Source: Candidatus Acidiferrum sp. (GTDB taxonomy: Bacteria > Acidobacteriota > Terriglobia > Acidiferrales > UBA7541). Taken from it: a stretch of 64,000 bases of DNA. Each line of letters begins with the position of its first letter. Position 1 is the stretch's first letter. Of the stretch, positions 46,716 through 61,595 are shown in pieces. The notes under the pieces are model-generated. The model was given only the letters and a program-made list of their open reading frames with translations. It did no database searches and was not told the origin of the DNA. Both the position numbers and the translations under genes were made by a program. The stretch is taken from positions 17,936-81,935 of the forward strand of contig DASXIT010000134.1 in NCBI GenBank assembly GCA_036497825.1, in the 5' to 3' direction.

Positions 46716-48026
46716 TTACTCTTTTGTGGAAATAATTTCCGGCACTTGCGGCAGTCTGCGGTTTGGATCTACCAAAAGCCACGCCAAAGCTCCCATAACA
46801 CTCAGGGCCGCGGCGACGTGAAAAGATGAATTCCACCCATACTGCTTGGCAATCGCTGGCGTCAACGAAGCCGTCAATGCTCCGCCAAGTTGCCCACCCA
46901 TGTTCATGAATCCGGAGGCTGCGCCCGCACTACGTCCAGCAATATCCGCAGTCACCGACCAATAGGAACTCTGCGAGAGATACAATGCGCCCGCACCTCC
47001 GGAAAGTACCACGCTCGCCAGGCGTGCATTTTCCGCGTGCGAACCTAAGACGAGAAAGAACCCGGCAAGCAAGAGTGAAAACACTCCCACACTGCACCGT
47101 CCCACCCGCTTTCCGTGTGATTTAGTTAATGCGTCGCTGATCGCTCCGCCCAACAAACTGCAGGTAACCATCGCGATCGGAGGAATCGTGCTGTAAAACG
47201 CGCTGGCCTTTAAATCTAGTCCGCGCACCTTCAGCAGATAAATGTAAAACCAACTGAAAAAAATCCAGGCTACGTACCCGAAACAAAAATAACTAAGCGT
47301 CACGCCCCACACTTCTTTGCTTCGAAGAATTTTTTTCCAGGTTGTCTTTCCGTCCCGGGTCGCAGAAGCATCAATCCCCGCCGTCCGGTTGTCCTCGATG
47401 TACTTGAGCTCTGTTGCAGAAACGTGTGAATGCTCTTCCGGATTATCACGAGCCGCGACGAACCAGACTGCACCGACCAGCAATCCCAACACTGCGCTGA
47501 CCCAGAACGACGCTCGCCACCCGTAATGGACCATAATATAGGTCACAATTACCGGTGCAGCTCCTGCTCCGGCGCCAACTCCGGCGAAGATCAATCCGTT
47601 GGCGATTCCTCTTTCTTGCGTGGGAATCCATCGCGACACAAATTGATTCGAAGCGGGAAAGATAATGGCTTCTCCCGCTCCGAGCAAAAATCTCACGAGA
47701 ACAAACAATAGAATTGCCCCCGCAAGCGTTGTGGATACCGCTGCTGTCAGCGCCGTAAACACCCCCCACCAGGCCACACCCGCCGTTAAAACTCGGCGGG
47801 GTCCCAGCCGGTCCGCGAGCCATCCTCCAGGTGTCTGAAAGAGTGCGTACCCGATCAGGAACGCGCTGAAAACCAATCCAAGTTGCGTCTGTTGTAAATG
47901 AAACTCTTCCGCAATCGAACTTCCCGCGATGGAGATGTTCACTCGATCCAGATACGACACAGCACTCAGCACAAAGAGCCAAAACACAAGAAACCAGCGC
48001 ACCTTGCCCGTGCCGCGAGCTATCAT
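46716..48026 (-). CDS. MFS transporter, anion:cation symporter (sugar-acid; GudP/DgoT-like)
   Basis: SYLDRVNISIA, GWLADRLGPRR, RFLLGAGEA, ERGIANG, MNMGGQLGG. Confidence 0.88.
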   Translation of the reverse strand: MIARGTGKVRWFLVFWLFVLSAVSYLDRVNISIAGSSIAEEFHLQQTQLGLVFSAFLIGYALFQTPGGWLADRLGPRRVLTAGVAWWGVFTALTAAVSTTLAGAILLFVLVRFLLGAGEAIIFPASNQFVSRWIPTQERGIANGLIFAGVGAGAGAAPVIVTYIMVHYGWRASFWVSAVLGLLVGAVWFVAARDNPEEHSHVSATELKYIEDNRTAGIDASATRDGKTTWKKILRSKEVWGVTLSYFCFGYVAWIFFSWFYIYLLKVRGLDLKASAFYSTIPPIAMVTCSLLGGAISDALTKSHGKRVGRCSVGVFSLLLAGFFLVLGSHAENARLASVVLSGGAGALYLSQSSYWSVTADIAGRSAGAASGFMNMGGQLGGALTASLTPAIAKQYGWNSSFHVAAALSVMGALAWLLVDPNRRLPQVPEIISTKE

Positions 48027-48094
48027 CCGCGCACCGTTGTTCTAAAAATGCAAACGAAGTACAGATTAATGAGAATGGCTCTTTTCCTTATAAG

Positions 48095-49372
48095 TTACGC
48101 TGAATGCACCTTGAGATATGCCGACAGCTTCTCCGCGATGATCTTGTCTTCCCCCGGCTTCAGCATGAATGAGTTCATCGACAACGCGGGGCTCTCCTCG
48201 CCCGCCGAAAGCACAATCGCTGGCTTCCCTTGCCGCAGCGCCTTCACAACTTCCCGCGGAGTGACTGTGATCCGTTTGTCCCAGTGAATTTCCATATGCG
48301 GCACGTGATTTGCCATGTCCGGCATCGAAAACATTGTCGTCACACCAGGAATCTTCACCAGTTCGCTGGAAATCAATTCAAGTCGCCCCTGCCATTCCTT
48401 GTTCAGCTCCTCGTGGTCTTCCTTCAAATAGCACTCCAGTGCCTTCACCATTCCTACGATCTCTTCCTTGCCCACTTTCTGGCTTCGCCCAAGTGTGTCC
48501 TCATGCGGTGAGTTGTTGAGCAGAGCATTGGCCACTATCTCTGTTCGTCCCAGCAGCAGTCCCGCGCATTGTGGCCCGCGAATCGCTTTCCCGCCACTAA
48601 ATGCCACCATGTCGTATCCCATATTCACATAGTCCCAAAGATGCGAGACCGGCGGAGTATCCGCCGCAGCATCAATAAACGTGGGAATTTTGTATTCCTT
48701 CGCCAGATTCACCCACTCCTCCACTTTTATCTGTCCCGCAGCATTCGCAAAATTGCTGAAGTGCATCATGGCTGTCTGCGGTCCCACTGCACGCCGCAAA
48801 TCTTCGCGCGTTTCGATTACCACAAGCTTGATTCCCGTCGCTCGCAATTGATGATCGAAAGGGTTCCGGTGCGATTTTTGAATAATCACTTCCGATTTCA
48901 TTCCTGTAAGATCCGGAAGCTGCTCGATGAATTTCGGATTATTCCCCGTAAGTAGTCCTGCAAGCCCGGACTGCATCGCCGCAGCCGCACCGGAAGTCAC
49001 CAGCGCGGTGTAGCCCGGTGGAAGCTTAAGCATTTCCGCGATGCGCTTTCCGGCCGCAACTTCAAGATCCGGAATGCTCACGAAATGTTGCCCCGCCATG
49101 TCCATTACCGCATCGACCTCCGGCCGCATCAGAGAACCGCCGAGCACCGTCATCGTCCCTTGGCCGTTGATCAGCGTAGTGACCCCGAGCTCTTCATACA
49201 CGTTTCCCGTTGAGCCGAATCCTGTCACCGTGGTTTGGGGCGCTGGGTTCGACGCAGTCACAGTCACGGGCGCCGCGAGCAATTTACGCGCATTTAGCAG
49301 CGCTCCCACCAACGCGCTGATTCCACCGACAAACATTCGTCGCGACCACTTTGTGCTGATCTCCATTGCCAT
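48095..49372 (-). CDS. SelA-like PLP-dependent enzyme (DgaE-like ammonia-lyase) with Tat signal
   Basis: SRRMFV twin-arginine motif, INGQGTMTVLGGS, VTSGAAAA, IDAAA, FSGGKAIRGPQ (PLP Lys), KVGKEEIVG. Confidence 0.82.
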   Translation of the reverse strand: MAMEISTKWSRRMFVGGISALVGALLNARKLLAAPVTVTASNPAPQTTVTGFGSTGNVYEELGVTTLINGQGTMTVLGGSLMRPEVDAVMDMAGQHFVSIPDLEVAAGKRIAEMLKLPPGYTALVTSGAAAAMQSGLAGLLTGNNPKFIEQLPDLTGMKSEVIIQKSHRNPFDHQLRATGIKLVVIETREDLRRAVGPQTAMMHFSNFANAAGQIKVEEWVNLAKEYKIPTFIDAAADTPPVSHLWDYVNMGYDMVAFSGGKAIRGPQCAGLLLGRTEIVANALLNNSPHEDTLGRSQKVGKEEIVGMVKALECYLKEDHEELNKEWQGRLELISSELVKIPGVTTMFSMPDMANHVPHMEIHWDKRITVTPREVVKALRQGKPAIVLSAGEESPALSMNSFMLKPGEDKIIAEKLSAYLKVHSA

Positions 49373-49384
49373 GTCTCCTCTCCG

Positions 49385-49891
49385 TTACTTGCGCAGTACC
49401 GCCGCCGTGCAGTTGATTTCCACCAGCGACTGTCCAGGAAGCGCCGCCACGGCGACCGTCGTCCTGGCCGGCCCGCCATTCGGAAAGTACGTCTTGAAAA
49501 CTTTGTTCATTCCGTCGTAGTCGTCAATCTTGGTCAGGTAAACCGTGAGCTGCAGTATGCTGTCCATCGTTCCGCCGCCGGCCTCAACTAGCGTCTTCAC
49601 ATTGTCCATCACCTTTTTTGTGTGTACCCCAATCTCCATCGCGAAATCGCCGTTCGGATCATGCGAGTGCGCGCCCTGGCCCGCGATGTAAATCACACCG
49701 CTGTGAATGATCAGCGGCGTAATGAATCCAGTTCCGGCTGGCTTGCCTTCGTAGTCCAGCTTCTGTACTCCGCTCGCCACCTGGGCCATTGTCGGTTCTG
49801 CATCGGGTAGCAAACTGGCCGCGCCAACTCCCGTGAAAAGTGCTGCCAATCGAGCCGCGAAACCTCTCCGTGTACTAAATGTCGAAAACAT
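49385..49891 (-). CDS. RidA/YjgF family imine deaminase with Tat signal
   Basis: TRRGFA twin-arginine motif, IYIAGQ, VYL...DYDGMN.VF..YF, PART (catalytic Arg), VEI. Confidence 0.85.
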   Translation of the reverse strand: MFSTFSTRRGFAARLAALFTGVGAASLLPDAEPTMAQVASGVQKLDYEGKPAGTGFITPLIIHSGVIYIAGQGAHSHDPNGDFAMEIGVHTKKVMDNVKTLVEAGGGTMDSILQLTVYLTKIDDYDGMNKVFKTYFPNGGPARTTVAVAALPGQSLVEINCTAAVLRK

Positions 49892-49929
49892 TCTTGTTCT
49901 CCTTTAAATAGTGCGTTACGAAATTGTTT

Positions 49930-51569
49930 TCAAGGCAACCGGAAGCAGAAAATATCGCTGCCTGCCGCAATCGCTACATGTTGAATCCCGTTCACAGAAT
50001 AACTCATTGGCGATGCATGAATGTTTTGGCCAGTCTGAAAATGCCACAGCGGCACGCCAGACCGCGCGTCGGCCGCCTCGAATGAGCTGGCCGAATCGCC
50101 AAAAAAAAACGATTCCGCCTTCTGTCGTCATTGTTCCTCCACTCGAATGATCCGCGCCCACCTGCGGATATTTCCACACAGGAACGCTCGCTCCCAGTTC
50201 ATACGCCAGCAAAATCTTTTTTCCAGCGTCTCCGGGACTTTTCTTTACACCGGTCGCATAATACGTGTGCCCCTTGGAAAACTGCTCTGGTTTCAAGAAA
50301 TACATATCGCAATTTTCCGATGCAAGAAAATAGAACAGGCGTGTCGCTGGATTGTAGGAAGGCGCATACCAATTCGTCGCGCCCCCCAAACCCCGGACAA
50401 ACACGCGTGCCATTCCGTGAAGGCATTACATCCGTGCGAATCGGCCGTCCCTTCTCGTCGATTCCCTTTGCCCAATTGAGCTTTTCCACAAACGGCACCG
50501 CTGAAAGAAAGGCGCCGTTCGTCCGGTCAAGAACATAAAGAAATCCGTTGCGGTTGGCTTCTACCAGTAGCTTGCGAGGCTCTCCCTTATACACCGCATC
50601 AATCAGCACTCCCGTTTCGGTCGCGTCATAATCATACAGGTCGTGCGGTGTGAACTGGAAATACCATTTCAACTTGCCCGTGTCAGGATCGAGAGCAAGC
50701 ACGCAATCCGTGTAGATATCGTCGCCTGGCCGCGGCCCTCCGTCGAAATCCGGCGACGGATTGCTTGTACCCCAATACAAAGTGTTCAACTCCGGGTCAA
50801 AGGTTCCGGGCATCCACGTAGTCCCACCTCCATGCTTGTACAAATCGCCCGGCCAGCTCGACGATCCTGCCTCGCCAGGTCCAGGAATCGTCCAGAATCG
50901 CCACGCAAGCTTTCCCGTTTCCGCATCGATTGCGGCTAAAAAGCCGCGGACTCCATCGTCTCCCCCGGACGTGCCAACAAGGACCTTGTCTTTCACCACG
51001 AGAGGTGCGCTCGTCGCTCCGTAGTTCTTGTTTCCGTCGGTGTACGGCACATCCCACAGCAAATGTCCCGATCGCGCATCCAGGCAGAGCAGATGTGCGT
51101 TGTCCGTCAGCATGTACACTCGCGAATGCCAAACTCCCACCCCGCGATTGTGGTGCTGCGCAGCATCGTCGATCAGTCCTTCTGTCACCGGTCGCGCGTA
51201 GTGCCAGATGATCCGGCCCGTCTGGCTATCCAGAGCATACGCATCGTTTGCCGATGTCACGAACATCAATCCATCGACGACCACCGGCGTTACCTCGAGT
51301 GCATCGGAATGCGGCGCATGAAACACCCAAGCTGCGCGCAAATTGCCAACATTGTTCACATTGATCTGGCTCAATGCGCTGTAACGCCGCCCGGTGTAGT
51401 CACCGTTATACGACAACCAGCTAGTGCCGACCGGTTGAGCGGCAAGTTGTGCAGCCTGTACATCAACCTTCACGGAAATAGAGTTCTGCTCGGGCACTTG
51501 AGCGTCCGCGCCACCGGCAATCCATCCACATAACAAAACTACTTGCACCGCGAATTGATCCCACCGCAT
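49930..51569 (-). CDS. PQQ-dehydrogenase-like beta-propeller quinoprotein, two +1 frameshifts in homopolymers
   Basis: Signal peptide, W.SYNGDY.G.RYS, TPVVVDG, TPHDLYDYD, NRNG..YVLDR. The frame is restored by removing one G (C6 at 50382-50387) and one T (A9 at 50101-50109), giving CPGFGGATNW...FFGD...WHFQTG...ASPMSY. Confidence 0.85.
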
Positions 51570-51574
51570 CTTTT

Positions 51575-51880
51575 CTACAAGCCTCCGGATTTCGGCTGCA
51601 CATTTGCGCTTCCCAGTTCTCCGCAATCGATCCCCCGCAAATTCACAATGTTGCCACCTAATTGCGGAACAATCACTACCCTCAACCACGCTTGCCATCC
51701 TTCAAACACCGTCGACTCGATTTTGCACGGCGCGGCGAATCCATTCGCTGTCTGTCCAGGTGACGCTGCGGAAACAAAAGCCGAAATCAGAAAAAACGAA
51801 AGGGCGCGCACTGCAATTCCACGGACCTCGACTCGAATTGTCCGTGGAGGCTGCCCTTCGATAATGAAATCCCGCTTCAT
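51575..51880 (-). pseudogene. Probable truncated remnant of a secreted aldose-epimerase/DUF4380-like protein
   Basis: Signal peptide, then CKIESTVFEGWQA-WLRVVIVPQLGG and an early stop. Family resemblance is from memory only. Confidence 0.4.
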
Positions 51881-51894
51881 CAGATAAGAACCCC

Positions 51895-52680
51895 TTACAA
51901 TCGCCCAAATTTCTTCACCGCTTCTTCGATCGACTTCAATTTTTCAATCCAGGCGTACATGGAATGCTCTTTGAAGTCCATCTCTTGCGCCAGGGTCAGC
52001 ACTTTTTCCGCCTCCGCGCGTGGCACGACCACTACTCCATCCGCGTCGGCCACCACGATGTCCGCGGGTTTCACTTCGACACCATCACAAATAACCGGGA
52101 TATCCGCACCGTCGAAGCGGTAGTGATGCACCGAGGTCGAAGGAACAATTCCCAGCGCATAAACGGGAAACCCGATCTTCTGCAGATAGGCCACGTCGCG
52201 CACACCCCCATTGATCACCGCCCCAGAAAAATCTCGTGCAGACATAGCCGTTCCCATCAAGCCGCCCATCCCCGCAATATCCGCACCGTCTTCCACCACC
52301 ATCACATAAACCGAATTGGGCGCTCCTCGGTCAATCGCAGCCAGCATGCCATTTAGTGCCTGCGGATCGTCATTAGTTTCCTTTTTCAACCTGACCGTCA
52401 CCGCGTATCCGGCAAACTTTGTTGGGAAAATCGGGCGCATCCGGTGCGTCATGTACATTCGCTTTCCCGTAAGCTGTTCCAGAGCGTCGGACACCGATGC
52501 GACTTCCACATGCCGGTAACCATCTAGAAGAGAGGCGCTTTCCTGTTTTGCGTGTGGTTCCTGGCCCGCCCGCGCGGCCCGCGCCCAAGCAATCCCGCCT
52601 AGGACTGTCAAAACAACTAGTCCACTTGCAACAATTTTGTGGATCGAATGGTGTTCTTTCCTATGACGTTCTGTATTCAT
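51895..52680 (-). CDS. RraA/HMG-aldolase family protein with N-terminal signal peptide
   Basis: IVASGLVVLTVLGGIAWARA signal, VSDAL, FAGYAVTV, GGVRD, GFPVYA, DIVVADADGVVVVP. Confidence 0.85.
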   Translation of the reverse strand: MNTERHRKEHHSIHKIVASGLVVLTVLGGIAWARAARAGQEPHAKQESASLLDGYRHVEVASVSDALEQLTGKRMYMTHRMRPIFPTKFAGYAVTVRLKKETNDDPQALNGMLAAIDRGAPNSVYVMVVEDGADIAGMGGLMGTAMSARDFSGAVINGGVRDVAYLQKIGFPVYALGIVPSTSVHHYRFDGADIPVICDGVEVKPADIVVADADGVVVVPRAEAEKVLTLAQEMDFKEHSMYAWIEKLKSIEEAVKKFGRL

Positions 52681-52775
52681 GACCTTCTCCCACATCAGCA
52701 GTTGCAGACTCTACCGCAACTTCCCTCGCTCGCGAAGTGCTTTTCCGAATTCCAGGAAACCAGCGGAAAAATGAG

Positions 52776-52804
52776 TTGACACGTTTTAATCCTTGCGGTA
52801 TCAG
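52776..52804 (+). promoter_or_regulatory. Possible sigma70 promoter of the TBDT-cytochrome-lactonase unit
   Basis: TTGACA, 17-nt spacer, TATCAG. Confidence 0.45.
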
Positions 52805-52918
52805 TGACAAACTAGCAGGGGAGATTCTTGTTAGTCCAGCCTGATTTTCAAATGATAGAAGTTACCCTTCTAGTAGCAAAGGTATCGTAGCGATTCAATT
52901 CTTCGAAGGGGTATCGTC

Positions 52919-55900
52919 ATGCGTGTTTATTTCGCTCCAACGCTTGTCGTGGTTATCCTATTTCTCATAGCCATTCCCGCCTGGCCCAGCATTAACGGCA
53001 GTATCTCCGGTATCGTGACCGATCCGAGCGGCGGTGTTGTGACCGGGGCCCAAGTGGTCGCGATCGAAACTCAGACCCAGGTACGCACCGAAGTAACCAC
53101 CGACTCGAAAGGTTTCTTCAATTTTCCTACGCTTCCCATCGGCAACTACACCATAGAAATTCATGCCAATGGTTTTAAGACCTACAAGCAAGAAGGACTG
53201 GCCATTGACGCAAACTCTGCTCTTCGCGTGGATGCGACTTTGCAGCTGGGCCAGGCCACCGAGGAAGTTTCTGTTACCAGCGACGCCGTCCGGGTTGAGA
53301 CGCAAAGCACGCAAATGGGTGAAGTGATCAGCGGTTCCCGCATGACCGCTGTCCCCCTCAACGGCCGCGCCTACACCGATCTTCTTTCCCTTCAGCCCGG
53401 CGTCGTCCCCTCCGCCTATGGATCCACGGCGCCAGGTATGAACGACCGCTCGCCATCCGGTGCGCCGGCTTCAACTGGCGGTGGTGGACTTAATTCGGGC
53501 AATCAATCGGTCAATGGTCAGCGAGAAGCCGCAAATGGCTTCATGGTGAACGGCTCTAACGTTACGGAGGGAAAGAATAACGGCGCGGCGGTTATTCCTA
53601 ATCTTGATTCGATTTCTGAATTCCGGATCATCACGAATAATTTTGATGCGGAGTACGGAAACTTCAGTGGCGGCCAAATTAACGTTGCCACCAAATCCGG
53701 TACCAATGCCATCCATGGGAGCGCATTCGAATTCGTACGCAACACTGCTCTCAACGCGCGGAATTTCTATAATCCGACTTCCTCGGGCCCGAAAGGCGAG
53801 TTTAATCAGAATCAGTTTGGCGGCACTGTTGGAGGGCCCATCAAGAAGGACAAAGTTTTCGTCTTTGTTGATTATCAGGGAACGCGACAGACTCAAGGCA
53901 GTACGGTCAATACTGTCGTGCCCACCGCTGCAGACCGCACTGGGAATCTGACAGATCTCGCTTCTTCCCTTTCGAGTGCCTACGCCGCATCTTTGCAACC
54001 GGGCGGGTCACCTGCCGGTACGGTTCAGGGAGCACAGATGGCCGCAAATCTCTCCGCTGCTCTGGGCTACTCCGTAAGTACGGGGGAACCGTACTATTAC
54101 GGCGTTGGAGCGAACCCGAACAATATGACGAACGTGTGCACAAGTGGCACAGGGGCAAATCCTTGCGTCTTCCCAAATGCGCAGATTCCCATGACTGCAA
54201 TCCAACAACTCTCTCCGCCGGCTGCAGCTCTCCTGCAGGGATCCTTTATTCCGCAAGGTGATCCAATCACGGGTGCCTTCACGACATCAGCTTTCGCCAA
54301 CACATTGAATGACGACAAGGGTGGCATTCGTGTGGACGCCAATACGCATTTGGGATCCTTCTTCGCTTACTATTTTATCGACAACTACAGTGAGAACGAT
54401 GCGTACCCGAACGGTGGGGCTACTGTTCCGGGCTATAACGGACTTTCTCTTGGCCGCGCGCAATTAGTAAATCTTGGCTTTACCAAGACCGTCAACGCGA
54501 CCAGCGTGAATGAATTCCATTTCAGCTATACCCGAAACGCCGCCAATCTTTTCACTCCGCAGGGTGGTCTGGGCCATTCTCTGACTTCTCTTGGGTTTAC
54601 TGCTGCCAATTGTCCGGCAAATGCTCCAACAGCTGGTTGTCAATTCAACGGCGGCATCTTGGCCACGAGCCCCAGTCTCGAGGGTGTGCCCAACATCGTG
54701 TTTAATAACTATACGATCGGCGTGCCGGCCGATACCGTGGGCCAATTCAACAATACCTTCCAGTGGCAAGACGTCTTTTCCAAGATCATCGGCCCGCACA
54801 GCCTCCGGTTCGGCGGCCAATATCATTACGACCAGATCAACGAGCGGAATTATTACGGAGAAAATGGACAATATACGTTTAACGGAAACGAAACTGGAGT
54901 TGATTTCGCGGACTTCCTGATCGGTGCTCCGGTTAGCTTCATCCAGGCGAGCCATCAGGTTCTCGATTCTCGCTCGCAGTATCTCGGACTCTTTATTCAG
55001 GACAGTTGGCGCGTAAAGCCCAGTTTCACTTTCAACTACGGTTTGCGTTACGAAATCAGCCTCCCGTGGTATGACACGCAGAACAAAATCGAGACCATCA
55101 TTCCCGGCGAGCAATCCGTTGTCTTCCCGACCGCTCCCACAGGCTGGCTCGTGCCGGGGGATCCAAATGTTCCTCGCACTCTTGCTCCGCCCAAGTACAA
55201 CGCCTTTTCTCCCCGTCTCGGCATCGCCTATTCGCCGGATTCGACCGATGGATTCCTCGCCAAACTTACCGGTGGGCCCGGCAAAACCAGTATTCGCGCC
55301 GGCTTTGGAATCTATTACACCTCCGTCGAGGATCTGAGCCAATTCTTGGAAGTCGGCGATCCTCCGTATGGAATATTCTGGGTATCCAGTGCACCGCCCT
55401 TCTTTTCAACGCCATTTCTTTCTCGCATGGACAATAGTGTCGAAACAGCTTCCGGCACGAATCCCTTTCCATTCGTGTTTCCCCCAACGAACGTTTCTGC
55501 GAAGAACCCAGACTCGTCCTTTCCATGGCAAAACGTAGAACCAATCTCCAGCGGCTTCGTGTTCTGGCATCAAAATCGGATGCCCTATTCGGAACACTAC
55601 GAGCTTTCTCTGCAAAGACAGTTCGGGTCGAGCACCGTGGTAAGCGCAAGTTACGTGGGCAACCAGGGTCACAAATTAATCACTTCAATTGAAGCGAATC
55701 CGGGGAGCGCCTCGATTTGTAACCAGGTGAATCAACTTGTAGGCTCTGGGACGTGCGCTCCCTTTGGCGAGAACACGCAATACACACAACCCACCGGCAC
55801 ACCCACCATCCCGGGCGCTTTCTACATTCAGGGAACGAATACCATCACCGGCACGCGAACTGTTCTCAATCCGACCTCTTTTGGCAGCAATCCCTATATG

Positions 55901-56617
55901 AAGGAAATCGCCAACTCCGCGTACAACTCTTTCCAAGCCAGCGTCCGCCATTCCAGCGCCCGAGGAGAATTCCTCTTTGGATATACTGTCAGCAAGTGCC
56001 TGGACAACTCCTCCGGCTTGCAGGACACTACCAATCCTTTTAATACGCGGCTTAGCCGCTCGCTCTGCTCCTTTAACGTCACGCAGAATTTTGTCGCTAG
56101 TTACGACGTAAATTTTCAACTGGAAAAGCTATTCCATGCCGACCATGGCTTTGCGAACAAAATCTCAGCAGGTTGGTCGCTCTCTGGCATCACCACCTTC
56201 GCGACTGGTCTGCCGATTACACTTTCAGAAAACGATGACAACTCTCTGACTGGCGCCGTTGGCGTTGATGTCCCGCAGCTAAGCGGTACCGGAAGTCTCT
56301 TCACGAACAAGAATCCCCGCTCTGGTCAGCCATACTTCAATCCGGGTTACTTCACAACTGAGCCTCTCGGCCAGATCGGGAACGCCAACCGGCGATTTTT
56401 CTCCGGCCCGGGCTTGAACAACTGGGACATAGCCCTGCTCAAGAGTACGAATTTCACTGAATCCAAGGTTTTGCAATTGAGGTTTGAGACCTTCAACACC
56501 TGGAATCACGCACAATTCGAAAACCCGACCGGCGTAATCAACAGCAGTCTGTTCGGTGTGGTAACCAACGCGCGCTCTGCCCGTGTCATGCAGGTGGGCG
56601 CAAAATTCTTGTTTTAG
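52919..56617 (+). CDS. TonB-dependent receptor, Oar/acidobacterial type
   Basis: Signal peptide, VPLNGRAYTDLLSLQPG, FDAEYG, FEFVRNTALNARN, C-terminal RVMQVGAKFLF. Confidence 0.92.
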   Translation: MRVYFAPTLVVVILFLIAIPAWPSINGSISGIVTDPSGGVVTGAQVVAIETQTQVRTEVTTDSKGFFNFPTLPIGNYTIEIHANGFKTYKQEGLAIDANSALRVDATLQLGQATEEVSVTSDAVRVETQSTQMGEVISGSRMTAVPLNGRAYTDLLSLQPGVVPSAYGSTAPGMNDRSPSGAPASTGGGGLNSGNQSVNGQREAANGFMVNGSNVTEGKNNGAAVIPNLDSISEFRIITNNFDAEYGNFSGGQINVATKSGTNAIHGSAFEFVRNTALNARNFYNPTSSGPKGEFNQNQFGGTVGGPIKKDKVFVFVDYQGTRQTQGSTVNTVVPTAADRTGNLTDLASSLSSAYAASLQPGGSPAGTVQGAQMAANLSAALGYSVSTGEPYYYGVGANPNNMTNVCTSGTGANPCVFPNAQIPMTAIQQLSPPAAALLQGSFIPQGDPITGAFTTSAFANTLNDDKGGIRVDANTHLGSFFAYYFIDNYSENDAYPNGGATVPGYNGLSLGRAQLVNLGFTKTVNATSVNEFHFSYTRNAANLFTPQGGLGHSLTSLGFTAANCPANAPTAGCQFNGGILATSPSLEGVPNIVFNNYTIGVPADTVGQFNNTFQWQDVFSKIIGPHSLRFGGQYHYDQINERNYYGENGQYTFNGNETGVDFADFLIGAPVSFIQASHQVLDSRSQYLGLFIQDSWRVKPSFTFNYGLRYEISLPWYDTQNKIETIIPGEQSVVFPTAPTGWLVPGDPNVPRTLAPPKYNAFSPRLGIAYSPDSTDGFLAKLTGGPGKTSIRAGFGIYYTSVEDLSQFLEVGDPPYGIFWVSSAPPFFSTPFLSRMDNSVETASGTNPFPFVFPPTNVSAKNPDSSFPWQNVEPISSGFVFWHQNRMPYSEHYELSLQRQFGSSTVVSASYVGNQGHKLITSIEANPGSASICNQVNQLVGSGTCAPFGENTQYTQPTGTPTIPGAFYIQGTNTITGTRTVLNPTSFGSNPYMKEIANSAYNSFQASVRHSSARGEFLFGYTVSKCLDNSSGLQDTTNPFNTRLSRSLCSFNVTQNFVASYDVNFQLEKLFHADHGFANKISAGWSLSGITTFATGLPITLSENDDNSLTGAVGVDVPQLSGTGSLFTNKNPRSGQPYFNPGYFTTEPLGQIGNANRRFFSGPGLNNWDIALLKSTNFTESKVLQLRFETFNTWNHAQFENPTGVINSSLFGVVTNARSARVMQVGAKFLF

Positions 56618-56708
56618 CAGTGGCGGACCAAAATAATTTGGCGCTTCATCAGGCCATAAACGCCGAGTGCGCCCTCCGAGTAAGTATTTGAAAGAGAGCT
56701 TCTCTTCC

Positions 56709-57557
56709 ATGTACGCGCGTCGCATCCACAAGATAGCAAGTGCAGTTGTCTGCGCAATTTTGGCCTTGGCCCGTGGCACTTACACTGCCCAGACTGCGCC
56801 ACAGTCAAGAATTATGCGGGCGCAACAACAAACAACGTCTGGCCGCGCCACTTTCGAATCGACTTGCGCGGCCTGCCATGGTCTTGACGGCCAAGGTGGC
56901 GAGCGCGGCCCCAACATTGCCTCACGCCGCGAGGTCCTTCGACTCTCCGACTCTGAACTGCTCAAAATTCTTCACGACGGAATTCCTTCCGCCGGCATGC
57001 CTCCTTTTGCTTCCCTCGGCAGCGCCAAGCTTGCCGCTCTCGTCGCCTATGTCCGCACGCTCCAAGGGAACGGAAAAGTCGTCGCAATTCCCGGGGATCC
57101 GCAAAAAGGCAAACAACTCTTCTTCGGCTCTAGTCGCTGCTCGGAATGTCATATGGTTCGCGGAAAAGGAGGTTTCGTCGCCGCCGATCTTTCCCATTAC
57201 GCCGCGACTCTCTCTCTGCCCGAAATCCGCGCCGCGATCACCAATCCCGGGATCGATTCTCCGCAGCGCAGCACTCTCATCGCCGTCATTCTGCACAATG
57301 GCCAAGTGGTCGAGGGTGTCATTCGAAACGAAGACAATTTCTCGCTCCAGTTGCAATCTCTCGACGGAACCTTCCATCTCTTTCAGAAATCAGACATCGC
57401 TAAAGTCGAGCCTCACGCGCAAACCCTGATGCCTTCGGATTACGCCTCCACCCTCACTGCTGCTCAGCTCGATGATTTGATCGGATATCTGATGACCGTT
57501 GCCCGGGAAACGAAAGGCGCGTCCTCTGGCAAACCAAACTGGGAGGACGATGATTGA
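56709..57557 (+). CDS. Periplasmic diheme c-type cytochrome
   Basis: Signal peptide, CAACH and CSECH motifs, GMP and LMP axial Met candidates. Confidence 0.88.
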   Translation: MYARRIHKIASAVVCAILALARGTYTAQTAPQSRIMRAQQQTTSGRATFESTCAACHGLDGQGGERGPNIASRREVLRLSDSELLKILHDGIPSAGMPPFASLGSAKLAALVAYVRTLQGNGKVVAIPGDPQKGKQLFFGSSRCSECHMVRGKGGFVAADLSHYAATLSLPEIRAAITNPGIDSPQRSTLIAVILHNGQVVEGVIRNEDNFSLQLQSLDGTFHLFQKSDIAKVEPHAQTLMPSDYASTLTAAQLDDLIGYLMTVARETKGASSGKPNWEDDD

Positions 57558-57638
57558 TTCGTTCCTCAGTTTGCCTGGTCAACGAATGAGTTATTCAATC
57601 TCGCTCACCCACATTTCGACTCCCTTGAACAGGACACC

Positions 57639-58604
57639 ATGATGAAAAAACTCTGCCTCTTGACGCTAACTCTGTTTCTGCTGGCCATCCCTCTTCACGC
57701 GCAAGAGGCTAAACCTCCTAAGCGCCAGTTCCAGCTCAAAGCGGAATCCCCCCAATTCTGGAAATTTATTCCGCAAGACGCCAAGCTCGAAATGCTCGCC
57801 ACCGGATTTGGCTTCACCGAAGGCCCAGTTTGGGATCTAGCAGGGTTTGTTTATGTCAGCGACGAGGAACTCAATAAAATTTTCCGCGTCTATCCAGACG
57901 GCCACAAGGAAGTTCTCCTTTCGCTTGGCGATCCGGATGGCAACACCTACGATCAGCAGCATCGCCTCCTCGATTGCGCCAGCTATCTGCGTGCCATTAT
58001 CCGCATTACCCCTGACGGCCAATACACCACACTCGCGGATCACTTCGAAGGAAAGAAATTCAACAGCCCCAACGATGTCGTTGTCGGTCCTGATGACGCA
58101 ATCTATTTCACCGATCCTGCCCTGGATGTCCCTCCAGGTGAAAAACAGGAACTCACTTTCCAAGGCGTATATCGGCTAGACACAAACGGTAAGGTCACGC
58201 TACTGACCAAAGAACTCACCCAGCCCAACGGCCTGGCTTTCTCTCCCGATGGCAAACACCTGTATATAGACGATAGCCAGCAGCGTAACATCCGCGTTTA
58301 TGATTTTCTGCCGGGTGGGACGTTAGCTAACAGCCGCATCTTCGGTGAAGAACCGGGCGGCAAGGGCGATGGCGTTCCGGACGGCATGCGCGTCGATCGC
58401 GAAGGCAATCTCTACGTCACCGGCCCGGGCGGCATTTGGGTCTGGGATTCCCACGGCCAACATCTCGGCACAATCTTCCTGCCTGAGCAGCCTGCCAATC
58501 TCGCCTGGGGCGATCCGGATCTCAACACGCTCTACATTACTGCAACTACCTCAGTCTATAAGCTGAAAATTTCCGCCCAAGGTTTCGTCCCATATTTGAA
58601 ATAG
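57639..58604 (+). CDS. Secreted SMP-30/gluconolactonase family protein
   Basis: Sec signal (LLAIPLHA), FTEGPVW, NSPND, PNGLAFSPD, PDGMRVD. Confidence 0.9.
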   Translation: MMKKLCLLTLTLFLLAIPLHAQEAKPPKRQFQLKAESPQFWKFIPQDAKLEMLATGFGFTEGPVWDLAGFVYVSDEELNKIFRVYPDGHKEVLLSLGDPDGNTYDQQHRLLDCASYLRAIIRITPDGQYTTLADHFEGKKFNSPNDVVVGPDDAIYFTDPALDVPPGEKQELTFQGVYRLDTNGKVTLLTKELTQPNGLAFSPDGKHLYIDDSQQRNIRVYDFLPGGTLANSRIFGEEPGGKGDGVPDGMRVDREGNLYVTGPGGIWVWDSHGQHLGTIFLPEQPANLAWGDPDLNTLYITATTSVYKLKISAQGFVPYLK

Positions 58605-58637
58605 CAAAAATTAAGAACTAATCAGTCATTCGCAATC

Positions 58638-59402
58638 TCAGCGTGCGAGCCAACCGCCATCGACCACAAGTACATGGCCATGTACGTAATCACTGGCAGC
58701 GGAACACAGAAAAATGGCTGCTCCTGCAAGATCGGGAGGTTCTCCCCAGCGGCCCGCGGGAATCCGATCGAGGATCTGGCGGCTGCGGAGTTGGTCGTCG
58801 CGGAGGGCGGCAGTGTTGTCTGTGACCATGTAACCGGGTGCGATGGCGTTTACATTAATCCCCTTGGCCGCCCATTCATTTGCGAACGCTCGAGTGAGTT
58901 GAACGACTCCCCCTTTGGCCGCCGCATACGACGGGACTAGAATTCCTCCCTGGAAGGAAAGCACTGAAGCAATATTCAAGATTTTTCCGGGACTGGCTTG
59001 CTTGAACATTTGGCGTGCCGCCAGTTGCGAGAGGCGAAAGACTGCTGTCAGATCGATAGAGATGACTTGGTTCCAATCTTCGAAGGCGTGTTCGACAGCC
59101 GGTGAGCGACGGATGATGCCAGCATTGTTGACGAGGATATCGAGCGAACCAAATTCCGAAACAGTTTTCTCGATTAGGGCGGAGCAGACCTGTGATTCAG
59201 CCAGGTCGCCAGAGAAATAAGCCGAGCGACCTCCAAGCGCTTGAATATCCGCGCAGATGGTTCCTGGCTGCGAACTAAGACCATGGCACGCAACATTGGC
59301 ACCCGCTTCGGCGAGCGCGAGCGCGATGCTGGCACCTAGCCCTCTATGTGATCCGGTAACCAGTGCATTCTTGCCGTTGAGTTGGAAGGCTGAAAGGCTC
59401 AT
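58638..59402 (-). CDS. kduD: 2-dehydro-3-deoxy-D-gluconate 5-dehydrogenase-like SDR
   Basis: TGSHRGLG, NNAGIIRR, IASVLSFQGGILVPSYAAAKGG, NAIAPGYM.TDNT, RIPAGRWG, DGGWLAR. Confidence 0.85.
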   Translation of the reverse strand: MSLSAFQLNGKNALVTGSHRGLGASIALALAEAGANVACHGLSSQPGTICADIQALGGRSAYFSGDLAESQVCSALIEKTVSEFGSLDILVNNAGIIRRSPAVEHAFEDWNQVISIDLTAVFRLSQLAARQMFKQASPGKILNIASVLSFQGGILVPSYAAAKGGVVQLTRAFANEWAAKGINVNAIAPGYMVTDNTAALRDDQLRSRQILDRIPAGRWGEPPDLAGAAIFLCSAASDYVHGHVLVVDGGWLAR

Positions 59403-59452
59403 CGATTCACTCCCCCGAAAATAGTAGTGCGGAAGTCTGTTGCAGAGCAGGA

Positions 59453-60790
59453 TCAAATCCTCCGCACCAGCCCGCGATCGGTTGCCTCAGTGTTGCGAAC
59501 GAGTAGAAGCACAAGAAGCATCCCAGTGAACGGGATTAGACCGGCAATAATCATCAGCGGATCGAACAGATGTGTGCCCGTGGAAAGTCGCGCGTCGGAA
59601 ATCTGACCAGCCAATAGATACACGATAATGGTGCCGATTGCGGCGCCTGTTCCGCTCAGACCGCTGACGGAAGCGACCGAATCGCTGTGGAAGAGATCTG
59701 AAGGGAGCACGTTGGCGATAGTGGTAAAAGATGCATAAGAGAAAGTAGCAAGGCCAAAAAGGAGAGCGAGCAACGAGAGATTCACAGTGAAAATGGTGGG
59801 GATGAGCAAGGTAACGCCGAGACCTCCGAACACCGCTAGAGCCTTGCGCGCGTTGCCGACTGACCAGCCGCGTTTGATGAGATAGCCCGACATACCGCCG
59901 CCAAAAAAATTGCCGAGATCCGCCGCGACAAATGGAATCCAAACGGCAATCAAACCACTTTTGAGAGAGATGCCCTTGGCGACGAGATAGATGGGAAACC
60001 AGTCGGCAATGAAAAAGAAAACCGGGTCCGTGAAAGTTCGGGCGATGATGGTTCCCCAGGTCTGAGGCAACTTCAGCAGATCAACTAAGCTGGGACGAAC
60101 CTTGTTGGGGGACGCCTGTTCCCTCGCATCGGAAAGGATCATACGGCGCTCGCTATCTCCAATGCGCGGATGCTCCTGAGGCGTGTAGTAGAGCCAGCGC
60201 CAAGCCACCAGCCAAGGAATGCCTAGGAGGCCAGGAACGACAAATGCGACCCGCCAGCCGAAGCGAAAGTAAATCCACAGAACAAGGAAAGGAGCGATCG
60301 CGCCGCCAATGGAAGAGCCGCTATCAAACAAGGCCGTTGCCAGTCCTCGTTCGTGTTTCGGGAACCATTCGGAGACAGCCTTGGTTGCAGCGGGCCAGTT
60401 ACCCGATTCGGCCGCTCCGAGAAAAAAGCGAAAACCCAGAAAAGAGTAAAAGCCGCGGGCGAGAGGGGTAAGCAAAGAAACGAGGGAATACCAGGCCACA
60501 GTAATGGTCAATCCGCGTTTGGTACCAAGGCGGTCCATGAGCCGCCCACAAAGGGTCTGCCCGATGGAATACGCTGCACGAAACGCAATGACGATAGCGG
60601 CGTAATCCGTGTTGGTCCAGTGATAGTCGCGTTTTAGAAAGGGCGCGAGAAGTGAGAGTGTCTGCCTATCAATATAATTAATGACCGTCGAGGCAAAGAG
60701 GATTCCCCCGATCCACCAGCGAAGGTTTGGGATCGTGCGGCGCCCGCCGGAATCACCGGGCTGTGGGCCGGAATGCGTGACATGCTCCAT
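59453..60790 (-). CDS. MFS transporter, ExuT hexuronate-like
   Basis: LRWWI, INYIDRQTLS, AESGNWPAATKAVSEWFP.ERG, FDSGSSIG. Confidence 0.88.
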   Translation of the reverse strand: MEHVTHSGPQPGDSGGRRTIPNLRWWIGGILFASTVINYIDRQTLSLLAPFLKRDYHWTNTDYAAIVIAFRAAYSIGQTLCGRLMDRLGTKRGLTITVAWYSLVSLLTPLARGFYSFLGFRFFLGAAESGNWPAATKAVSEWFPKHERGLATALFDSGSSIGGAIAPFLVLWIYFRFGWRVAFVVPGLLGIPWLVAWRWLYYTPQEHPRIGDSERRMILSDAREQASPNKVRPSLVDLLKLPQTWGTIIARTFTDPVFFFIADWFPIYLVAKGISLKSGLIAVWIPFVAADLGNFFGGGMSGYLIKRGWSVGNARKALAVFGGLGVTLLIPTIFTVNLSLLALLFGLATFSYASFTTIANVLPSDLFHSDSVASVSGLSGTGAAIGTIIVYLLAGQISDARLSTGTHLFDPLMIIAGLIPFTGMLLVLLLVRNTEATDRGLVRRI

Positions 60791-60830
60791 CAACAAGCCG
60801 TCAAGCGACAAGAGCGACGGGCAACCATTG

Positions 60831-61595
60831 TCAGGCGGAAGCCGTGAGCGCCGACAGCGTGGCTGGGCTAAGCAAAGCGGAGGATTGCTGGTCTAGATAG
60901 ACCGTGGCATTGGGATGGTTCCGCAAGATTGACGACGGCGCCATCGGACTGATTGGCCCATCGAAACAAGCTTTGATGGCGGCGGCTTTGCGGGCGTCAG
61001 GAACGACGGCAAGAATTTCCTTGCTCTTGAGAACCTGGCGCACGGACATCGAGATGGCTTGCTTGGGAACTGCGTCGAGATTCTTGAACCAGCCTTCGCC
61101 AACCTGCTGGAGGCGGCACGCGTGGTCGAGGGCGACAATGATGTAAGGTTCTTCAGTCTCGAAATCCGCGGGAGGATCGTTGAATGCAATGTGCCCATTT
61201 TCGCCGATACCCAGGAAAGCGATATCAATCGGTGAAGTAGTGATGGCCTTGCCCACGCTACAAATCACCTCCGCAGGATCCTGGCTGCCATCGAGAAGGT
61301 GATAGTTAACGATGCCGGTCCTCGCAATCAAACGTTCCTGAAGGAATTTGCAGAAGCTTGCAGGATGGGTCATGGGGAGTCCGATATATTCGTCCAGATG
61401 AAAAAGCTCAACTTGCTTCCAGAGAATCCCTGAGGTTGCGATGAGAGCTTCGAGGAATTCGAATTGAGACGCAGCACTGGCAGCCACGACACGAGCTTGC
61501 CCACGCTCTGCGATAGCAGAGCGGATGGCTGCCGCAGCCTGAATGGCCGCTGCTTTGCCAAGTGAAACTTTGTCATCGAAAATTCTCAGACGCAT
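60831..61595 (-). CDS. nagB: Glucosamine-6-phosphate deaminase family protein
   Basis: [37 protein letters not shown]-type tail. No signal peptide. Confidence 0.78.

Follow-up and report, generated by a model that had tools for sequence, protein, structure and literature searches.

The window analysed here is a 64,000-nt stretch of the genome of Candidatus Acidiferrum sp. (assembly GCA_036497825.1, contig DASXIT010000134.1), in which genes were called from a listing of open reading frames (ORFs) and from family scans. It carries a module of three transcription units, one on the minus strand, a divergent one on the plus strand and a second one on the minus strand, with two glycoside hydrolase (GH)-like paralogues lying outside both ends. 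Our subject is the first minus-strand unit together with its divergent neighbor. The minus-strand operon opens with a gene for an RraA-like protein (51895-52695, likely start 52680; PF03737), which has the fold of 4-hydroxy-4-methyl-2-oxoglutarate/4-carboxy-4-hydroxy-2-oxoadipate (HMG/CHA) aldolases and oxaloacetate decarboxylases, and closes with a major facilitator superfamily (MFS) permease of the anion:cation symporter (D-galactonate/sugar-acid) type (46716-48026). Between the two lie a mutarotase-like (DUF4380) gene remnant of 101 codons, recognized by its match to a protein of the related locus L005 (51575-51880), and a quinoprotein dehydrogenase of the pyrroloquinoline quinone (PQQ) methanol/ethanol type ('acido-empty-quinoprotein'), which is a pseudogene as assembled (49930-51569; TIGR03075/TIGR04528). 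These are followed by a RidA-family enamine/imine deaminase (49385-49891; PF01042) and a DgaE-family (SelA-like, fold-type I) pyridoxal phosphate (PLP) enzyme (48095-49372; TIGR01437), both with a twin-arginine translocation (Tat) leader. The plus-strand unit encodes a TonB-dependent-type outer-membrane barrel (52919-56617; Pfam CarboxypepD_reg and OMP_b-brl_4), a dihaem cytochrome c with two CxxCH motifs in its translation (56667-57557, likely start 56709) and a lactonase of the SMP-30/gluconolactonase family (SGL; 57639-58604; PF08450), the last two predicted to be exported. The genes sit where an initial annotation, made from the sequence alone, had placed them, and its list and coordinates hold; it had overlooked the mutarotase-like remnant. 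A scan for promoters and terminators returned sites no more frequent than chance.

The PLP enzyme begins with MAMEISTKWSRRMFVGGISALVGALLNARKLLAAP, which includes SRRMFV, and RidA with MFSTFSTRRGFAARLAALFTGVGAASLL, which includes TRRGFA. Both had been read as export signals in the initial annotation, and both are present and conserved: the twin-arginine motif occurs in the form W[TN]RRxF[LM] in 77 of 80 orthologous DgaE-like PLP enzymes from different species and in the form [ST]RRxFA in 70 of 76 RidA orthologues. In the two sets of orthologues the conserved pattern consists of [ST]RRxF, then a hydrophobic stretch, then an AxA-like site. Twin-arginine leaders are also found on distant members of the DgaE family that are 33-54% identical, and leaderless members (about 370-380 aa) are without the entire 35-55-residue N-terminal extension. 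The features of a Tat-exported protein are thus all there, namely the motif, a moderately hydrophobic h-region, an AxA-like site and a TatC encoded in the genome (195 bits, cut-off 132.7), and the PLP enzyme and RidA are predicted to reside in the periplasm. Hydrophobic N-termini of the Sec type are carried by the SGL lactonase (leader MMKKLCLLTLTLFLLAIPLHA), the cytochrome c, the intact orthologues of the quinoprotein and the RraA-like protein, for which a Sec-type leader or a membrane anchor is predicted; the export signals noted earlier on the RraA-like protein and the lactonase are therefore borne out as leader sequences. No leader is present on the KduD and NagB-like proteins of the second minus-strand unit, nor on the Eda aldolase of relatives.

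By score, the PLP enzyme lies well under the curated thresholds of its family. It reaches 177.5 bits against TIGR01437, short of the cut-off of 385.3, with which a whole-genome search agrees, and 127.8 bits against NF047797 (the ammonia-lyase acting on D-glucosaminate-6-phosphate), where 600 would be needed. Its best match in the PDB is DGL, the ammonia-lyase for D-glucosaminate-6-phosphate (7LC0/7LCE). We aligned it with DGL, the 80 orthologues and 36 diverse family members; the C-terminal part of this alignment has low identity, and single positions there are somewhat uncertain. The PLP lysine (Lys213 of DGL) and the equivalents of Arg242 and Lys245 are invariant in 80 of 80 orthologues and in 36 of 36 diverse family members. 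In the Salmonella DGL, Arg301, Arg332 and Arg346 have been proposed to bind the phosphate of the substrate, and His162-His163, called strictly conserved, has been identified as the proton donor to C3 (PMC9529869). In the low-identity C-terminal alignment the first of these arginines is replaced by His in 80 of 80 orthologues, the second is never Arg and the third is Phe in 80 of 80; the histidine pair is missing from the orthologues, where the region is absent or reads SNF. The missing arginines suggest an enzyme for an unphosphorylated acid, and the lack of a phosphate site would suit a periplasmic, unphosphorylated substrate. Likewise, an enzyme that has lost the His-His pair and releases the enamine rather than protonating it would need RidA, and the adjacency of the RidA gene favors an enamine/imine-releasing lyase over an aminotransferase. 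A 399-aa 'putative selenocysteine synthase' (PDB 8T7J) is as near to the DgaE-like family as DGL is, and we found no paper mentioning this entry in the literature. In the reference library, clustering at 50% identity divides the family into 4354 clusters.

The other proteins of the module were compared with family models and known structures. RidA scores 75.6 bits against PF01042 (cut-off 27.3, passed) and 77 bits against TIGR00004, below the cut-off of 106; its catalytic arginine is kept, with 'PART' aligning with the PAR of the RidA structure 2CSL. The RraA-like protein scores 122.5 bits against PF03737 (cut-off 24.5) and falls under the cut-offs of the equivalog models. Aligned to 3NOJ, it keeps Arg123-Asp124 (GGVRD) and has Gly in place of Asp102; it could be an aldolase, an enzyme that epimerizes 2-keto-3-deoxygluconate (KDG) and 2-keto-3-deoxygalactonate (KDGal) at C4 via retro-aldol chemistry, or a keto-acid decarboxylase. 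The SGL lactonase scores 169.7 bits against PF08450, and its best PDB matches are a putative gluconolactonase (3E5Z) and an 'exported gluconolactonase' (3DR2), with E-values of 1e-34 to 1e-40. The cytochrome c matches Cytochrome_CBB3/Cytochrom_C and the TIGR02603 haem domain, and is presumed to be the electron acceptor of the quinoprotein. The MFS permease scores 246 bits against MFS_1 and 260 bits against TIGR00893, the latter under the cut-off.

Relatives of the PLP enzyme are encoded in at least 576 species of the genome collection. Synteny was assessed in the best 80 relatives (PLP enzyme 69-92% identical), taken as species-level loci with neighbors counted within 10 kb; most of these loci are labeled Acidoferrales, Sulfotelmatobacter, Acidobacteriaceae or Terriglobia, and a few records of soil metagenome-assembled genomes name other phyla. 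The core order is RraA-like, (quinoprotein), RidA, DgaE-like, MFS, with the cytochrome c and lactonase genes divergent. RidA adjoins the PLP gene in 76 of the 80 loci, the MFS gene follows the DgaE-like gene in 73 and the RraA-like gene is present in 68; the divergent cytochrome c is found in 58, the quinoprotein, inside the operon between RraA-like and RidA, in 56, the lactonase in 48 and an outer-membrane barrel in 22. A full mutarotase-like gene stands between RraA-like and quinoprotein in 16 loci. The initial annotation had staked its proposal on these genes occurring together in related genomes, and across the 80 loci they do so strongly. Another RraA-like protein, ~300 aa long, PRK08245-like and equipped with a signal peptide, is encoded on the opposite strand between the DgaE-like and MFS genes (~11300-12250, minus strand) in 11 of the 80 loci, all of Acidobacteriaceae type (L065, L074, L077, L081, L083, L084, L086, L087, L089, L091 and L092).

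What follows the permease in related loci bears on the product. A KdgK-like kinase and/or Eda comes after the MFS gene in 32 of 80 loci, with Eda in 32 and the kinase, between MFS and Eda, in 18. The best matches of this kinase are KDG/KDGal kinases, and the Eda of module loci passes the TIGR01182 cut-off. In the Acidiferrum genome itself, KdgK-like and Eda genes lie side by side on another contig (C232). The presence of these genes after MFS in so many loci makes the import of a 2-keto-3-deoxy acid plausible, as had been proposed at the outset for a KDG-type product. At L008, a GatZ-DeoR-SIS-PfkB block of the galactosamine/tagatose (Aga) type directly abuts the RraA-like gene of the module, and DeoR-SIS-PfkB genes are near the module in L026, L035 and L036. 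A block of this kind in the genome under study, comprising a GH-like gene (629 aa), GatZ/KbaZ, DeoR, SIS and PfkB, lies off the module's contig (C5:124368-130378).

Some loci carry a different set of accessory genes. EF_0837-type amidohydrolases (deacetylases) with signal peptides are encoded in loci of the L002 type and in L093, and an amidohydrolase together with a second DgaE-like gene was counted in 5-6 of the 80 loci. In the five amidohydrolase loci of the L002 type, the genes for the quinoprotein, the cytochrome and the lactonase are missing; being close relatives of one another, these loci amount to about one observation. L093 is a metagenome contig of 39% GC with a DgaE-like homologue that is 44% identical. 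Its gene row reads DUF4434 (Tat), MFS, lactonase (Sec), DgaE-like (Tat), amidohydrolase (Sec), RidA (RR) and a second DgaE-like (Tat), so that every enzyme carries a leader, and this low-GC locus implies that the exported module is not confined to one phylum. The DUF4434 protein that heads it (L093:2582-3670) has the Tat leader SRRDFFKKAS. Within the class of the window, 69 of 201 genomes have members of the DgaE-like family, up to 8 each (e.g., G395, G322 and G355). Matches to these class-wide copies often begin at query residue 45-57 within longer ORFs; their sequences suggest that many are exported paralogues.

Two of the oxidative genes of the window appear to have fared less well than the core. 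The quinoprotein gene carries two +1 homopolymer frameshifts, one in a run of six G (~50379-50384) and one in a run of nine T (50101-50109), which divide it into three frame segments (51569-50383, 50380-50101 and 50100-49930), and this copy consequently has no intact propeller. The 92%-identical contigs L005 and L006 have one base fewer at each run and encode intact quinoproteins of 545-548 aa. Next to it, the 101-aa ORF of the mutarotase-like gene joins, in frame, residues 1-87 to residues 451-481 of a protein that is complete (481 aa) in L005, ~1.1 kb having been deleted internally from the window copy; the match of this gene to the TTE1925 mutarotase family is weak. None of the other long genes of the window is frameshifted, and elsewhere in the window uncompensated indels relative to L005 lie outside coding regions. 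Because of the adjacent internal deletion and the unbroken state of the other long genes, we favor the view that, in this lineage, the oxidative sub-module has truly decayed over an assembly error, at odds of roughly three to one from the sequences compared. Sequencing errors were considered as the source of the frameshifts and judged less likely on the same grounds.

The nature of the dehydrogenase also departs from what had been assumed. Where the initial annotation reasoned from quinoprotein aldose dehydrogenases, we find a gene of the PQQ methanol/ethanol family and not of an aldose-dehydrogenase family, broken as described. The intact L005 protein scores 483.2 bits against TIGR03075 (cut-off 480.05) and 526 against TIGR04528 (cut-off 650). 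The quinoprotein reads DDAAQHHNRG at the position of the vicinal Cys-Cys that we take to be expected in enzymes of this type. PqqC was not found in this 93%-complete genome. Some 12 kb past the window (C134:93802-94206), the contig end cuts off a further quinoprotein fragment, which matches the C-terminal 135 aa at 71% identity and follows trehalose/glycogen-type genes unrelated to the module. It may belong to a second quinoprotein paralogue that might compensate for the broken gene.

Taken together, these findings lead us to propose, with a probability of about one half, that the module is an accessory catabolic locus, patchy yet widespread in Terriglobia, whose core would deaminate an unphosphorylated 2-amino-2-deoxy-aldonate outside the cytoplasm. 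What we observed directly is the gene content, the conservation of the leaders, the synteny, the pattern of residues and, in the assembly, the decay of genes; the substrate, the location in the periplasm and each catalytic step are inferred from these. The candidate substrate would be glucosaminate, galactosaminate or a relative. The Tat-exported DgaE-family lyase would take off the 3-hydroxyl group and free an enamine/imine, which the Tat-exported RidA would hydrolyze, giving ammonium and a 2-keto-3-deoxy-aldonate, either KDG or KDGal. The sugar-acid MFS permease would then bring the keto-deoxy acid into the cell, and a KDG-kinase-like enzyme and Eda would convert it to pyruvate and glyceraldehyde-3-phosphate. 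In relatives, the aminoaldonate could come from two sources: from a free amino sugar via the exported quinoprotein, the dihaem cytochrome c and the SMP-30 lactonase, sometimes with the mutarotase-like protein, or from an N-acetylated acid via the exported EF_0837-type amidohydrolase. The first source appears to have been lost in the genome studied here, and with the quinoprotein and mutarotase-like genes decayed the cell would need either a supply of ready-made aminoaldonates or a different oxidase. The periplasmic pathway of the initial annotation is thus supported in part, by comparison: through the co-occurrence of the genes, the conserved leaders, the residue pattern, the KdgK-like and Eda genes behind the permease and the links to amino sugars that Aga-type genes and deacetylases provide in relatives. 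Its oxidizing quinoprotein, however, is a pseudogene here as assembled.

More tentatively, it is possible that many Terriglobia, and at least some bacteria of another phylum, run a complete extracytoplasmic pathway for amino sugars, in which a quinoprotein (PQQ-type, possibly lanthanide-type) passes electrons from a free hexosamine to the dihaem cytochrome c, the lactonase opens the ring, and the Tat-exported DgaE-type lyase, loaded with its cofactor, and RidA follow, with ammonium and KDG or KDGal formed in the periplasm. If true, such a pathway would couple the oxidation of amino sugars directly to respiration and would place a PLP lyase/RidA pair outside the cytoplasm.

Several observations weigh against the proposed deamination module. 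The PLP enzyme scores far below the DgaE cut-offs and has lost the histidines of DGL, so that its reaction could differ. The earlier claim that the acid is deaminated unphosphorylated agrees with the kept PLP lysine and the lost phosphate arginines, but the substrate is deduced from gene context alone. The periplasmic location is predicted from leader sequences, and the import of KDG sits uneasily with an RraA-like aldolase in the periplasm. The quinoprotein is of the alcohol-dehydrogenase type, broken here, in a genome without PqqC. Finally, the KduD, NagB-like and GH genes are found alongside the module at only a minority of loci, and the distribution is patchy, with a close DgaE-like orthologue in one of five other genomes of the genus.

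These weaknesses leave room for other explanations. The exported lyase and RidA might scavenge nitrogen from small beta-hydroxy amino acids (D-/L-serine, threonine or 3-hydroxyaspartate), yielding pyruvate, 2-oxobutyrate or oxaloacetate plus ammonium, with the RraA-like protein as an oxaloacetate decarboxylase and the sugar-oxidizing genes separate and linked by chance. SelA/DgaE chemistry is indeed a beta-elimination on a serine-like moiety, the loss of the DGL-specific residues would be in keeping with another substrate, and the RraA family includes oxaloacetate decarboxylases besides aldolases (the names of NF006731 and TIGR02798; 3NOJ). Moreover, D-Ser and D-Thr are also deaminated by OngC, the deaminase of an oxidized-chitin cluster discussed below (PMC9537276), and there is a precedent for the periplasmic deamination of amino acids with RidA (PMC5053998). 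We nevertheless regard this account as unlikely. It leaves unexplained the KdgK-like and Eda genes after MFS, the conserved divergent promoter region shared by the lactonase, cytochrome c and mutarotase-like genes, and the adjacency of sugar-deacetylase-type amidohydrolases and Aga-type genes. It is similarly improbable that the locus combines two unrelated periplasmic functions, one unit (quinoprotein, cytochrome c, lactonase and mutarotase-like) oxidizing a neutral aldose, or an alcohol or aldehyde, and feeding aldonate to MFS, KdgK and Eda via a dehydratase encoded elsewhere, the other (DgaE-like, RidA and RraA-like) acting on another amine. The oxidative genes are dispensable, with the quinoprotein missing from 24 of 80 loci, all three oxidative genes absent from the L008- and L002-type loci and, here, the quinoprotein decayed while the rest is intact; the alcohol-dehydrogenase-like family of the quinoprotein points the same way. 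Set against this are the position of the quinoprotein inside the operon, between RraA-like and RidA, in 56 of 80 loci, the fact that no aldonate dehydratase turned up within the module, and the distant L093, which keeps a lactonase with its amidohydrolase, RidA and DgaE-like genes.

The number of paralogues, up to 8 per genome and two per module in L002 and L093, suggests several substrates, and the module has linked genes for GH-like proteins and for an outer-membrane transporter. The PLP enzyme could accordingly act on some other amine-bearing glycoconjugate freed by the neighboring hydrolases, for instance by beta-elimination of the sugar from free O-glycosyl-serine or -threonine, or on other amino-deoxy acids. 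This we consider quite unlikely: we know of no glycosyl-serine lyases in the DgaE family, the idea has no direct support, and the KdgK-like and Eda genes indicate a six-carbon keto-deoxy acid as the product. It is very improbable, lastly, that the N-terminal extensions fail to work as export signals and that the enzymes are cytoplasmic, as DgaE and RidA are elsewhere. Tat-like motifs can arise by chance in single sequences, but here the motif is kept in nearly all orthologues of both enzymes, distant homologues share the leader pattern while cytoplasmic family members are without the whole extension, the genome has TatC, and the partners (cytochrome c, lactonase and quinoprotein) are classic periplasmic proteins.

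The chemistry that we propose for the deamination module has a history. Biochemists have long described an oxidative route that takes glucosamine via glucosaminate to KDG. The PQQ glucose dehydrogenase of pseudomonads also oxidizes glucosamine, and a glucosaminate ammonia-lyase (EC 4.3.1.9) follows; Zymomonas combines a Tat-exported glucose-fructose oxidoreductase (GFOR) with a periplasmic gluconolactonase. In both groups, a dehydrogenase and a lactonase turn an aldose into an aldonic acid in the periplasm, as proposed for the module. Glucosaminate deamination in pseudomonads is cytoplasmic and uses unrelated enzymes, whereas the lyase and RidA of the module are predicted to be exported. The dehydrogenase of the module also differs from those of the periplasmic aldose systems: it is an 'empty quinoprotein' of the alcohol-dehydrogenase type, and it comes with a dihaem cytochrome c that is soluble.

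Among systems with related enzymes, the dga system of Salmonella is the nearest for the lyase. Salmonella DgaE and the window enzyme share the PLP fold, the family, the PLP lysine and the Arg/Lys pair, and DGL forms a 2-keto-3-deoxy acid, which a KDPG-type aldolase then cuts (PMC9529869). However, Salmonella DgaE is cytoplasmic and acts on a phosphorylated substrate fed by the phosphotransferase system, while the window enzyme has a Tat leader and neither the DGL histidine pair nor the phosphate arginines, and is paired with RidA, MFS and periplasmic redox proteins. The closest parallel in logic is the ong cluster of Pseudoalteromonas prydzensis for oxidized chitin, with the deacetylase OngB, the deaminase OngC, the RidA protein OngD and KdgK (PMC9537276). 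It leads from N-acetyl-aminoaldonate to aminoaldonate and on to KDG and NH3, all unphosphorylated, and includes RidA, a TonB-dependent importer and a KDG kinase (PMC9537276); the amidohydrolases of the L002-type loci and L093 mirror OngB. Unlike the module, OngB, OngC and OngD are cytoplasmic and act after import of the oxidized N-acetylglucosamine GlcNAc1A by an SSS transporter, and OngC has fold-type III and is not of the DgaE/SelA type (PMC9537276). Genes for a quinoprotein, a cytochrome c, a lactonase and an RraA-like protein are also missing from the ong cluster. The window shares with it only RidA: the KdgK-like gene is elsewhere in the genome, the deaminase is of another fold family, and LPMO_10 was not found in this genome. 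The likeness is therefore one of analogy in logic and not of membership.

RidA outside the cytoplasm beside an imine producer and a cytochrome c has precedents in the extracytoplasmic L-amino-acid oxidases paired with RidA, namely LAO1 M-alpha/M-beta of Chlamydomonas and the lao-cccA-ridA genes of Gluconacetobacter diazotrophicus (PMC5053998). There, the imine producer is a flavin oxidase acting on L-amino acids and not a PLP lyase, and the sugar-acid context is lacking. Exported gluconolactonases likewise have a precedent (3DR2). The RraA-like protein shares its fold and Arg123-Asp124 with the HMG/CHA aldolases (LigK/ProA, 3NOJ), from which it differs by the change of Asp102 to Gly, its predicted signal peptide, its scores below the equivalog cut-offs and the lack of any aromatic-degradation context. 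The initial annotation knew of no described pathway with this compartmentation. The chemistry that turns an amino sugar into an aminoaldonate and then KDG has been described before, in Salmonella dga and Pseudoalteromonas ong (PMC9529869, PMC9537276); the apparent novelty lies in the predicted periplasmic compartment and in which enzyme family is used. The literature that we searched contained no account of a DgaE-type lyase exported by Tat together with an exported RidA, nor of periplasmic aminoaldonate deamination.

Amino sugars from chitin, peptidoglycan and fungal and bacterial exopolymers are a major pool of organic nitrogen in soil, and Acidobacteriota are among the most abundant soil bacteria, with a poorly known physiology. 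If the proposed deamination takes place, it would constitute a widespread route that mineralizes amino-sugar nitrogen to ammonium outside the cytoplasm. It would also give a function to a large uncharacterized clade of Tat-exported SelA/DgaE-like PLP enzymes, extend the biology of bacterial RidA to the periplasm and provide a physiological context for the puzzling 'acido-empty' quinoproteins. A compact module with soluble enzymes makes the prediction directly testable.

The second minus-strand unit of the window is less regularly associated with the core. It comprises genes for a cytoplasmic KduD (2-dehydro-3-deoxy-D-gluconate 5-dehydrogenase; 58638-59456), a second sugar-acid-type MFS permease, MFS2 (59453-60811), and a cytoplasmic NagB-like protein of the glucosamine-6-phosphate deaminase/6-phosphogluconolactonase superfamily (60831-61595). 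KduD passes the TIGR01832 cut-off (348.1 bits against 338.85), and among the 80 loci a close orthologue is near the module in L014 only. MFS2 scores 224.6 bits against TIGR00893, under the cut-off. The NagB-like protein had been taken for NagB; it is cytoplasmic and matches the superfamily (PF01182, 59.8 bits), but it reaches 121.2 bits against TIGR00502, where the cut-off is 236.9, and 82 against 271 for the galactosamine-6-phosphate isomerase model. NagB-like genes are found in 12 of 80 loci. Close MFS2 orthologues (69-90% identical) adjoin them in L014, L040, L076, L077 and L090, and most MFS2 matches among the 12 loci are 28-31% cross-matches to the first MFS gene.

The two GH-like genes, both on the plus strand, encode secreted clan GH-A-like hydrolases with an inserted discoidin (F5/8-C) domain (Pfam F5_F8_type_C_2). 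Paralogue 1 (44459-46666) has a weak GH39 match; paralogue 2 starts at 61798, leaves the window beyond 64000 and is 51% identical to paralogue 1. A GH-like homologue adjoins the MFS gene in 13 of 80 loci, and a third copy lies on another contig of the genome (C77:36133-38322). A chitosan-binding link of the discoidin domain was not used, its E-value of 0.002 being too weak. We also rejected any claim on the polymer cut by these hydrolases, as the structure model is poor (pLDDT 57.5) and Foldseek, with GH79, GH44 and GH51 as the nearest folds, places the fold in clan GH-A only. In this low-confidence model the fold is nearest to GH79 beta-glucuronidase/heparanase. The three paralogues are ~735-770 aa long, carry the discoidin domain inside the clan GH-A barrel and have no NCBIfam match; as far as the model goes, they may represent an undescribed GH family.

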